Assembly: GCA_052387475.1 (NCBI GenBank)
Contig: JBQTJD010000835.1
Location: 1 to 32,410, forward strand
Source of the DNA: Anaerolineales bacterium
GTDB taxonomy: Bacteria > Chloroflexota > Anaerolineae > Anaerolineales > UBA6663
Reading direction: 5' to 3'
DNA length: 32,410 bases
The position numbers and the translations under genes are program-made. Shown one piece after another: positions 4,399-5,978 of this stretch (positions are counted from its first letter, which is position 1; each line of letters starts with the position of its first letter). The notes beneath the pieces are model-generated. The model had not been told where the DNA came from, did no database searches, and saw only the letters and a list, made by a program, of their open reading frames with translations.

Positions 4399-5229
4399 AT
4401 GTTCGACTCCTCGCCCCCGGTCAACTCATTGCGCGTCGCTCTGGTAGGCAAAGGCGGCGTGGGCAAGTCCATGATTTGCGGCACGCTGGCCCGGGTACTC
4501 GCCCGCCGCGGCCACCGCGTCCTCGCTCTGGATGTGGATACCCTGCCAGGTCTGGCCTTATCACTCGGCCTGAGTCTCGATGCGACCGGTGATGCAGGAC
4601 TGCCGGAAGAGTTGGGCGAGCGGGTTGAGGGGCGTGGCTGGGTGTTGAGGGAGGGTGTGGACATGGCGGAACTGGTCGCCCAACGTTCTATCGCCGCGCC
4701 CGACGGCATCCGTTTCCTGCAACTGGGCAAGTTGCCGGGACGTGTGAAACCGGGTTCGACTACCGCCTTCCGCGCCGTGTTGGAAAGATTCCGTGAGGAG
4801 GGCTGGAGCCTGATTGGTGATTTGGCTGCCGGGACCCGCCAGCCCTTCTTCGAGTGGAGCAATTTCGCCGAGGTGGTGTTGGTGGTGGTCGAGCCTTCCG
4901 CCAAATCCGCGTTGACCGCACGCCGCCTCGCCAAGCTAGCGGATGAACGAAAGACCGAGGGAGGCGAGACGCGGCCCCGGCCTCTGGTTGGATGGGTGGC
5001 GAACAAGTTGCGTTCGGAAAAAGACCTGCAATGCATTGAGCGCGCATTGAACGGGCATCAACTGCCGCTGCTCGCGGCCCTGCCCTACGACGAGCAGTGC
5101 GCGGCCGCCGAGCGGCTTGGTCAGGCCCCCATAGACGTTGTGCCAAATGCTGCGGCGATCGTTGCGATTGAGAAACTCGCGACGTGGCTTGAGCAACGGT
5201 CACCGATATCGAAAGGAGTTCTCCAATGA
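4399..5229 (+). CDS. Degenerate CooC/MinD-like P-loop NTPase paralog lacking the CxC metal motif
   Basis: The Walker A motif is LVGKGGVGKS. Two family motifs are replaced: DxDxNPNLG by DVDTLPGLALSLG, and DMEAG by GDLAAGTRQ. No Cys or TGA occurs at the CxC-equivalent position (GRVKPGSTTAFRAVL). The stop overlaps the next start (ATGA). Confidence 0.7.
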   Translation: MFDSSPPVNSLRVALVGKGGVGKSMICGTLARVLARRGHRVLALDVDTLPGLALSLGLSLDATGDAGLPEELGERVEGRGWVLREGVDMAELVAQRSIAAPDGIRFLQLGKLPGRVKPGSTTAFRAVLERFREEGWSLIGDLAAGTRQPFFEWSNFAEVVLVVVEPSAKSALTARRLAKLADERKTEGGETRPRPLVGWVANKLRSEKDLQCIERALNGHQLPLLAALPYDEQCAAAERLGQAPIDVVPNAAAIVAIEKLATWLEQRSPISKGVLQ

Positions 5230-5978
5230 AAATTGCGATTGTCGGCAAAGGCGGCGTGGGCAAGACGACCACGGCTGGCACGGTTGCGCGCCTGATGGCG
5301 CGGCAAGGGCGAGACGTCATTGCGCTGGATTGTGACGCGAACCCGAATCTGGGGCTGTCGCTGGGCCTCTCGGTGGAAGAGACGGAGCGCCTCGCGGCCA
5401 TTCGTCAGTCATTGGATGCGGAGGATGGCGACAAGGCCGAGCACGCCCCGACCGTGCCGGAGATTCTGGAGCGCTTTGGGACCTGGGCGCCCGACCGCGT
5501 GCGGCTGGCGGTGGTGACGAAAATTGACCACTTCGACCCCGGCTGTCCTTGATGCGGCATCTCGGCCGAGCAGTTGCTTGGCGAAATGACCGCGACCAAT
5601 GGCGACCGGGTGGTGATGGCCGACATGGAGGCCGGGCTGGGGACGTTGAGCCGCATGACGGAAGGCCAGGTGGACTTTGTATTGGTGATCGCCGAGCCGA
5701 CGGCGAAGGCGCTCGAGGTGGCCCAACGAGCCGTCGTGCTGGCGCGCGAGCGCAACGTGGGCCAGGTCGTGGTAGTCGCCAATCGCATCCGCAACGCGGA
5801 GAATTTGGAGAGGGTGCGAAAGGCGTTGCCGGACGAGGAAATTATCGTCGTGCCGGAGGATCCGGCGATTGAAGCCGCCGACCGGGAAGCTGTCGCCCCG
5901 ATTGATGTCGCGCCCGACTCGCCGGGCGTGCAGGCGTTTGCGGCGGTCGCGCGTCGGTTGTTGGAGCGCGTCAACTAA
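5226..5978 (+). CDS. CooC/AcsF-type P-loop metallochaperone NTPase, putative selenoprotein (C-P-U-C motif)
   Basis: The track ORFs 5226-5552 and 5574-5978 share a frame, joined by the TGA at 5550-5552. The motifs present are:
- MKIAIVGKGGVGKTT.
- DCDANPNLG.
- DPG-C-P-[TGA]-C-GISAEQLL.
- DMEAGLGTLSR.

The distance from the TGA to DMEAG (23 residues) equals the distance from the second Cys of CxC to DMGAG in CooC1, as I recall that sequence. Confidence 0.8.
5565..5582 (+). promoter_or_regulatory. SECIS-like hairpin downstream of UGA 5550-5552
   Basis: GCCGAGC-AGTT-GCTTGGC forms a 7-bp stem (one G-U pair). It begins 12 nt after the UGA, and the loop contains GUU. Confidence 0.5.

Follow-up and report, generated by a model that had tools for sequence, protein, structure and literature searches.

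In a 32,410-bp contig of an Anaerolineales bacterium (Chloroflexota; JBQTJD010000835.1, assembly GCA_052387475.1), analysed over its whole length and called the window here, one gene, CooCc (5226-5978), probably codes for a selenocysteine (Sec)-containing ATPase of the CooC/MinD type. The window genes CooCa, CooCb, CooCc, the FmdE-like gene, the HycI-type gene and the ABC importer genes described below lie on the forward strand. We put at roughly 0.8 the probability that CooCc is a genuine Sec-decoded CooC-like ATPase. Its UGA codon at 5550-5552 would be decoded as selenocysteine rather than as a stop, yielding a single 250-residue polypeptide, and a hairpin at 5565-5582 would direct this decoding, with SelB and Sec-tRNA(Sec) binding to it as long as the ribosome is positioned at the UGA. 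In the protein, the selenol would take the place of the second thiol of an interfacial metal motif, giving C-P-U-C in the window and U-x-U-C in many relatives. From what is known of the family and from synteny, the protein may act as a nucleotide-gated metallochaperone, most likely carrying nickel for [NiFe]-hydrogenase, in which ATP-driven dimerisation would form or open a Cys/Sec metal site. Sec would be of advantage there as a ligand that is fully deprotonated, softer and more resilient to oxidation than Cys. The case for Sec decoding is one of sequence comparison, built on a Sec/Cys pair, a structure that looks like a selenocysteine insertion sequence (SECIS) and conservation of coding, all three being unusually clear. 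An initial annotation of this DNA had proposed the core of this reading, namely one CooC-like gene with a Sec-encoding UGA at the second Cys and a SECIS-like hairpin behind it. It is supported by the Cys column of homologues, the recurrence of TGA, codon-like evolution, a hairpin conserved in TGA forms only, and the fit to a bacterial SECIS (bSECIS) model.

Two open reading frames (ORFs) lie here in the same frame, 5226-5552 (108 aa, opened by ATG) and 5574-5978 (134 aa, opened by TTG), with the TGA at 5550-5552 in between. The initial annotation had joined them into a 250-aa CooC-like protein; coordinates and frame were verified in the sequence, and the gene counts 250 codons with one in-frame UGA (the proposed Sec109) before its TAA stop. 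A ribosome-binding site, AAAGGAG (5212-5218), can be read 7 nt before the ATG, within the end of the preceding gene, CooCb. The product carries near its start a deviant Walker A motif or P-loop, G7-K-G-G-V-G-K-T14 (5244-5267; GKGGVGKTT when extended to T15), which includes Lys8, the signature of MinD/NifH/CooC-class ATPases; the columns of this motif are invariant in both homologue alignments inspected. Pfam places the joined product with CbiA, Fer4_NifH, AAA_31 and ParA, hence with proteins of the CbiA/MinD/CooC type. Compared with the PDB by phmmer, its top match is CooC1 of Carboxydothermus hydrogenoformans (3KJE, E=1.7e-22, residues 1-210), followed by MinD (4.5e-9), while NifH and Mrp score 1e-4 or worse. 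CooC1 (3KJE/3KJG/3KJH/3KJI) is the ATP-dependent nickel-insertion factor of Ni,Fe-CO dehydrogenase. A structure model was made with AlphaFold2 for a Cys orthologue (P0003; predicted local distance difference test score 89); its top Foldseek matches are MinD, FleN and CooC1 3KJE, with template modelling scores of 0.70-0.73 (0.73 for CooC1). The predicted fold of CooCc is that of MinD, CooC and NifH, and on sequence and model together CooC1 is its nearest characterised relative.

The predicted metal-binding motif, C107-P108-U109-C110 (5544-5555), lies in that model in the loop that joins a core strand to the next helix. Its counterpart in Cys homologues is CxCC, and in the alignment to 3KJE the Cys112-Tyr-Cys114 of CooC1 faces C107-P108-[TGA]109. 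In its context the motif reads G-C-P-U-C-G, with an extra invariant Cys110 beyond the CxC pair. The 120 top-ranking full-length homologues, which align at 52-60% identity over some 98% of the length, all have C-x-C-C at the TGA column, in the form of CPCC (99), CQCC (14), CMCC (5), CACC (1) or CTCC (1). Together with the alignment of CooC1 Cys114, this bears out the earlier placement of the UGA at the second Cys of CxC.

The best 120 matches to residues 1-108 alone are gene calls of 103-108 aa, 63-92% identical to CooCc, and every one of them ends at the motif. They represent at least 120 independent 90%-identity clusters. Twenty-seven stop at the second Cys position, after G-C-x, as in the window, and the remaining 93 at the first, so that they end at the Gly preceding it. 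Named organisms among these short relatives include Chloroflexota (82% identity), Dormibacteraceae and Gemmatimonadales. Where related loci were read as DNA (n=10), the stop at the Cys position is always TGA, never TAA or TAG. The TGA stands alone, at the same codon as in the window, in L002, L041 and L129 (C-x-U-C); in L001, L004, L005, L040, L042, L043 and L044 a second TGA precedes it by 6 nt (U-x-U-C), and in these orthologues one downstream hairpin serves both. The loci come from metagenome-assembled genomes (MAGs) labelled Dormibacterota, Mycobacteriales, Gaiellales and Acidimicrobiia, and overall the recurrent stop is found under MAG labels of Chloroflexota, Dormibacterota, Actinomycetota (the last three of those orders and classes) and Gemmatimonadota. 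Cys-form loci read as DNA number seven (L003, L120, L122 and L124-L127). A scan of metagenomes with a P-loop pattern gave about five true orthologues among the matches listed. On a rough neighbour-joining tree of 240 N-terminal sequences, at least seven switches between Sec and Cys are needed. An error of sequencing or assembly was rejected as the source of the TGA, which recurs in independent assemblies, and so was a general reassignment of TGA (code 4 or 25), TGA being the terminator of 15 of the 29 confident window genes, CooCb included.

Downstream of the TGA the sequence behaves as coding DNA. Protein identity to relatives runs uninterrupted across it at 52-59%. In the seven codons from the TGA to the hairpin loop, variation occurs at position 3 (five columns) and position 1 (three columns) and never at position 2, so that the peptide stays C-G-[ILV]-[SA]-[PA]-E-Q, with its third Cys invariant. 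These 21 nt evolve as codons, which excludes an untranslated spacer before a restart at TTG, and the same pattern led us to reject TTG 5574 as a restart codon. The initial annotation had named, as a sign of being wrong, homologues routinely split at this point with no conserved structure behind the split. Relatives are indeed routinely 'split' there, but always with a conserved structure downstream.

That structure, the SECIS-type hairpin (5565-5582), reads GCCGAGC-AGUU-GCUUGGC: a 7-bp stem (5565-5571 with 5576-5582, one G-U pair) under an apical AGUU loop (5572-5575). From the UGA there are 12 nt to the stem and 19 nt to the loop, and both coordinates and folding agree with the 7-bp, AGUU-capped hairpin first described 12 nt past the UGA. 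Its energy is -10.8 kcal/mol (z=-4.8), a stability that none of 200 shuffled sequences equals. The bSECIS model asks for a loop of 3-9 nt, an upper stem of 4-16 bp, a minimum free energy of -7.5 kcal/mol or lower, a G within the first two loop positions followed by G or U, and 16-37 nt from UGA to loop (PMC13188914). With a 4-nt loop beginning A-G-U, 7 bp, 19 nt and -10.8 kcal/mol, the CooCc hairpin falls within all these limits, and the upstream UGA of the UxUC relatives, 25 nt from the loop, is inside the range as well. In an alignment of ten TGA forms, RNAalifold returns this hairpin as the sole consensus structure; 95.7% of its cells are paired, against 19-46% when the partners are slid. 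Two stem pairs show compensatory changes, the base pair (C-G/G-C) and the third (C-G/U-G/U-A).

Several observations weigh against this reading. To begin with, covariation is limited, as four of the seven stem pairs never vary. The stem consists of codons for a conserved peptide, E-Q-L-L, which accounts for this limit and makes synonymous codon use the sharper test. Of the TGA forms 11/11 have the codons GAG CAG TTG CTY, and of the Cys forms with the same or nearly the same EQLL peptide 1/7 (hypergeometric p of about 4e-4, kinship ignored); the remaining Cys forms have CTG or CTC as first Leu, or a changed stem. The choice of TTG over CTG is that of loop AGUU over AGCU, and the loop G-U, a feature associated with SelB recognition, is fixed in TGA forms. 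The one Cys form that retains the same hairpin codons, L125, is a further point on the negative side. Its stretch 1116-1160 codes for GCQCCG followed by the exact GAG CAG TTG CTC of Sec forms, and it may be a recent convert from Sec to Cys that keeps a fossil SECIS. There is no Rfam SECIS match, be it at the gathering score over the whole window or at E<=10 over 3700-6300; bacterial SECIS elements being short and specific to gene families, this carries little weight. No selA, selB, selD or tRNA-Sec is present in the 32,410 bp of the window, and ARAGORN finds no tRNA-Sec in 31 related loci either. This too counts for little, since the window is a single, complete contig of 32 kb out of a genome, and the capacity for Sec decoding is therefore something that we infer. 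As for the function, the window has no structural gene of a hydrogenase, and nickel, the hydrogenase client and a partnership with CooCb are suggestions drawn from just two sources, synteny and the CooC1 precedent.

Two further genes of the window have an in-frame TGA at the codon of a conserved Cys. The first CooC-like paralogue, CooCa (3446-4222), has its TGA at 3779-3781 and, after it, a GUU-loop hairpin of 8 bp (3795-3813). The initial annotation gave it as UxC and the sequence agrees, the motif reading G-U-A-C. In relatives, CooCa TGA forms keep the hairpin through compensatory changes (L004, L007, L012, L040, L043, L045, L047, L053, L061 and L076), with stems as diverse as GCUACG/CGUAGC, GCCACG/CGUGGC, GUCACG/CGUGAC and CCGCGC/GCGCGG; Cys forms do not retain it. 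This hairpin is built on codons for H-A-T-V-R-S, and its covariation is stronger than that in CooCc. The start that homology implies, at 3446, is a non-canonical ATT. Downstream of CooCc, the gene of an FmdE-like protein that has a zinc ribbon at its C-terminus (5990-6586; Pfam FmdE, 9.8e-44) has a TGA at 6143-6145, at the Cys of a conserved D-x-C-x-x-D-x-x-Q that reads SDM-U-TVDGIQ in the window; an 8-bp hairpin with a GUU loop (6158-6176) begins 12 nt on. Cys occupies this column in L005 and in PDB 2GVI. L129, a 90%-identical relative, has the same CooCc TGA and hairpin and two FmdE paralogues, each again with TGA and hairpin. The two strands of the window (64.8 kb) together contain four hairpins whose stem reaches 7 bp or more and whose loop is (N)GUU, and three of the four sit 12-13 nt past the in-frame TGAs at 3779, 5550 and 6143. 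The FmdE-like protein is a third selenoprotein candidate, not in the lists searched, and looks like a possible HypA-like partner.

Two other accounts of the TGA have to be weighed. It could be a true stop, leaving a split gene or pseudogene made of a 108-aa P-loop fragment and a 134-aa fragment started at TTG 5574. Gene callers yield exactly these two ORFs, public databases hold hundreds of 103-108-aa products, and the TTG, invariant in TGA forms, can be read as a conserved restart codon. Yet the 21 nt from TGA to TTG vary in the manner of codons only, no Shine-Dalgarno sequence precedes TTG 5574, and the stop is always TGA and always at the codon of a metal-ligand Cys, seven relatives having a second TGA 6 nt upstream which is again at a Cys codon. 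Furthermore, according to the model, the cut would fall inside the MinD-fold core, past its central beta-strand, and strip both halves of the metal site. A true stop is thus very improbable. Alternatively, the UGA might be read through with no Sec system at all, by a near-cognate tRNA-Trp or tRNA-Cys or by a suppressor tRNA, which would place Cys, Trp or Gly at the site. That Sec machinery was not observed and that Rfam has no SECIS match fit such an account. By contrast, genuine stops in the window are most often TGA (15/29 genes), and the sites at issue are confined to Cys-aligned codons of three genes, each with a 7-8-bp hairpin 12-13 nt on. The geometry of the hairpin, with G-U in the apical loop, is that of SelB-dependent decoding, and the loop U (TTG, not CTG) is fixed only in TGA forms. 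This second account is also quite unlikely, if somewhat less so than a true stop.

If CooCc is decoded as Sec, the family combines two known kinds of system, the metallochaperone ATPases of the CooC type and the SECIS-dependent selenoproteins of bacteria. It shares with CooC1 the MinD/SIMIBI fold, the deviant Walker A motif and the alignment of Cys112-x-Cys114 with C107-x-U109. It differs from it by an identity of only about 30%, by Sec as second ligand (as both ligands in UxUC relatives), by the extra invariant Cys of CxCC, by the absence of a nearby cooS/acsA and by its conserved pairing with a Cys-less paralogue. Among functional precedents for a MinD-like ATPase within a hydrogenase cluster, the closest is the Mrp/MinD-type HypB of Thermococcus kodakarensis (3VX3, 5AUN-5AUQ), a P-loop ATPase of the same superfamily which replaces the GTPase HypB in nickel insertion into [NiFe]-hydrogenase and has the zinc-finger protein HypA as its partner. 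Its match to CooCc is weak and limited to the P-loop (3VX3, E=5.8e-4, residues 5-39); it has neither the CxC/CxCC motif nor Sec, and the possible partner of CooCc is FmdE-like, not HypA. CooCc itself has no HypB match in Pfam or NCBIfam.

Bacterial proteins in which Sec binds a metal or takes part in its trafficking are already known, namely the large subunit of [NiFeSe]-hydrogenase and formate dehydrogenase, and Sec forms are predicted for MerT-like proteins, a P-type ATPase (UxxC), a YHS domain and HgcA (PMC13188914). CooCc resembles these selenoproteins in having its UGA at a Cys of a metal motif, Cys homologues and a stem-loop that fits bSECIS; unlike it, they include no metallochaperone ATPase of the P-loop class. 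CooC, PF01656, FmdE or a U-x-U motif have no entry in the text and tables of that 2026 review (PMC13188914), which catalogues families of prokaryotic selenoproteins by Pfam/NCBIfam accession and Sec motif. Sec-containing CooC, P-loop chaperones, FmdE and UxU likewise go unmentioned in the deep-Sep paper and the 2016 genome survey (supplementary files included), in the BSepDB paper and in Haft's 2022 preprint. An apparent text match to 'CooC' in PMC5424206 turned out to be 'Cooccurrence' and was discarded. No NCBIfam model reaches its cutoff for the three CooC-like proteins or the FmdE-like protein. Within the literature and curated families searched, CooCc looks like the member of an undescribed selenoprotein family.

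The neighbourhood of CooCc points to a client other than CO dehydrogenase. Immediately upstream stands CooCb (4399-5229), a CooC-like ATPase paralogue whose P-loop is intact and which in no case has the Cys motif. Its stop overlaps the CooCc start in an ATGA (5226-5229), and in 17 of 20 related loci it is found directly before CooCc on the same strand. At the contig edge, 5-490 codes for a HycI/HyaD-type [NiFe]-hydrogenase maturation endopeptidase (Pfam; TIGR00072, 4.8e-33), and HycI is syntenic with the CooC paralogues in L001, L002, L004, L012, L120, L122 and L127. Further on, 7641-11238 holds a NikA/Opp-type ABC importer, identified by Pfam as a family-5 solute-binding protein and two permeases. 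The second permease is a mechanical ORF (10177-11238) that overlaps the end of the first (9378-10340), and its true start is probably later than 10177. The same importer genes adjoin CooCb and CooCc in L003, L005, L124, L127 and L129. Genes for [NiFe]-hydrogenase small and large subunits, HypC/D/E/F and HycI adjoin CooC-like paralogues in L120-L125 and L127, and HycI or HypE matches are near them in L001, L002, L004, L012, L014 and L015. No CO dehydrogenase gene (cooS/acsA) was found in the window or in related loci with called genes, and neither HypA nor HypB is among the 27 called genes of the complete-looking cluster in L122. The name CooC consequently holds for fold, Walker A motif and CxC; it does not for the context, which is that of [NiFe]-hydrogenase and nickel uptake, and the protein is best called CooC-like. 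We consider it an even bet that CooCc serves the delivery of nickel to hydrogenase.

Other observations in this neighbourhood may be set down here. A methyltransferase gene is also among the window neighbours of the CooC-like paralogues. Just upstream of the CooC-like genes, between an EamA transporter and a helix-turn-helix regulator, the stretches 1740-2459 and 2456-3071 hold the gene of a DUF6390 protein as well as two small ORFs, of 93 and 109 aa, that match nothing in Pfam or NCBIfam. The window homologue of HypE (11609-12364) is reduced to its C-terminal AIRS_C half, together with the PRIC motif of the C-terminus; nothing is left of the N-terminal half, and the 370 nt upstream (11239-11608) contain many stops in that frame. 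It is probably a remnant of hypE or a pseudogene. The locus L120 (3436-9022, Candidatus Dormibacteria MAG, GCA_054639755.1) displays seven CooC-like paralogues in tandem, close to a lone 545-aa gene resembling a [NiFe]-hydrogenase large subunit (no small subunit adjacent), a MoxR/CoxD-like AAA gene, a VWA/CoxE-like gene and HycI, an unusual expansion and combination.

What CooCc pairs with and what it carries are separate matters. The initial annotation had proposed a heterodimer of CooCa (UxC) and CooCc (CxU) with a mixed Se2S2 metal site. Both genes belong to the same operon-like cluster and their Sec positions are complementary; there is also the precedent of CooC1 (PDB 3KJE-3KJI), in which the CxC motifs of two protomers build one site. 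However, the conserved and coupled neighbour of CooCc is CooCb (17/20 loci, with the ATGA overlap in the window), whereas CooCa frequently lies several kb off or is encoded on the other strand. Sec-form CooCc coexists with Cys-form CooCa in L001, L002, L005 and L041, most relatives are UxUC, which breaks the complementarity, and the family-specific third Cys suggests a site made mostly by one protomer. The CooCa-CooCc dimer is therefore not supported and appears unlikely, synteny favouring CooCb as partner. CooCc would work with this translationally coupled, Cys-less protein, likely as a CooCb-CooCc heterodimer with the metal site supplied by one protomer; a single-protomer site would also explain the third Cys (CxCC). 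CooCa, with its classical GCxC motif and variable placement, probably forms a separate (homo)dimer, and we propose that it and the FmdE-like Sec protein form part of the same system. As to the cargo, Sec decoding as described could serve an Fe-S cluster held at a dimer interface, in the manner of Mrp/NBP35/ApbC or of NifH. The fold and the P-loop match NifH, BchL and Mrp-type proteins too, and the small subunits of [NiFe]-hydrogenases require Fe-S clusters. Against this, CooC1, which binds Ni or Zn, is a far better match (E=1.7e-22, as compared to 1e-4 or weaker for NifH and Mrp), and the motif aligns with the CxC of CooC, which differs from the CxxC found in Mrp/NBP35. In the window, L003, L124, L127 and L129 the genes have a Nik/Opp-type importer next to them, and there is also synteny with HycI, a maturation protease that depends on nickel. 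An Fe-S cargo seems to us about as doubtful as the CooCa-CooCc dimer.

Going further, one may tentatively see in CooCa, CooCb-CooCc and the FmdE-like protein a selenium-dependent module for nickel delivery to the [NiFe]-hydrogenases of aerobic soil phyla (Chloroflexota, Actinomycetota, Dormibacterota and Gemmatimonadota), replacing or supplementing HypA/HypB. CooCb and CooCc would form an asymmetric heterodimer with a selenolate-rich nickel site, (U/C)-x-U-C, on a single protomer, and the FmdE-like protein would be the HypA-like partner. This picture as a whole is speculative, and clearly less probable than nickel delivery by CooCc taken by itself.

The CooCc TGA family is not rare. It comprises at least 120 distinct 90%-identity clusters in soil-type phyla, which are usually regarded as poor in selenoproteins. 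Its Sec-form genes, the window's own entry (P0241) included, are annotated as 103-108-aa fragments of an 'AAA family ATPase' or 'CO dehydrogenase maturation factor', a systematic error that can be fixed. The three candidate selenoprotein genes of this one cluster could also serve as a small panel on which to examine a hitherto unstudied SelB/SECIS specificity, marked by a stem of 7-8 bp, a GUU loop and a spacing of 12-13 nt. To our knowledge, almost all known selenoproteins are redox enzymes. If a metallochaperone driven by ATP has Sec as a ligand, often twice in U-x-U-C, selenium would be put to another use there, and would tune metal affinity, the kinetics of transfer or resilience to oxygen in place of catalysing redox reactions. 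The link with hydrogenase and nickel uptake raises the questions of whether selenium limits hydrogenase maturation and of how CooC-type ATPases with and without ligand motifs cooperate. Should the selenium-dependent module exist as proposed, Sec would have a non-redox role as the metal-transfer ligand of a chaperone, and the maturation of hydrogenases, possibly together with the oxidation of trace-gas H2 in soils, would depend on the supply of selenium.

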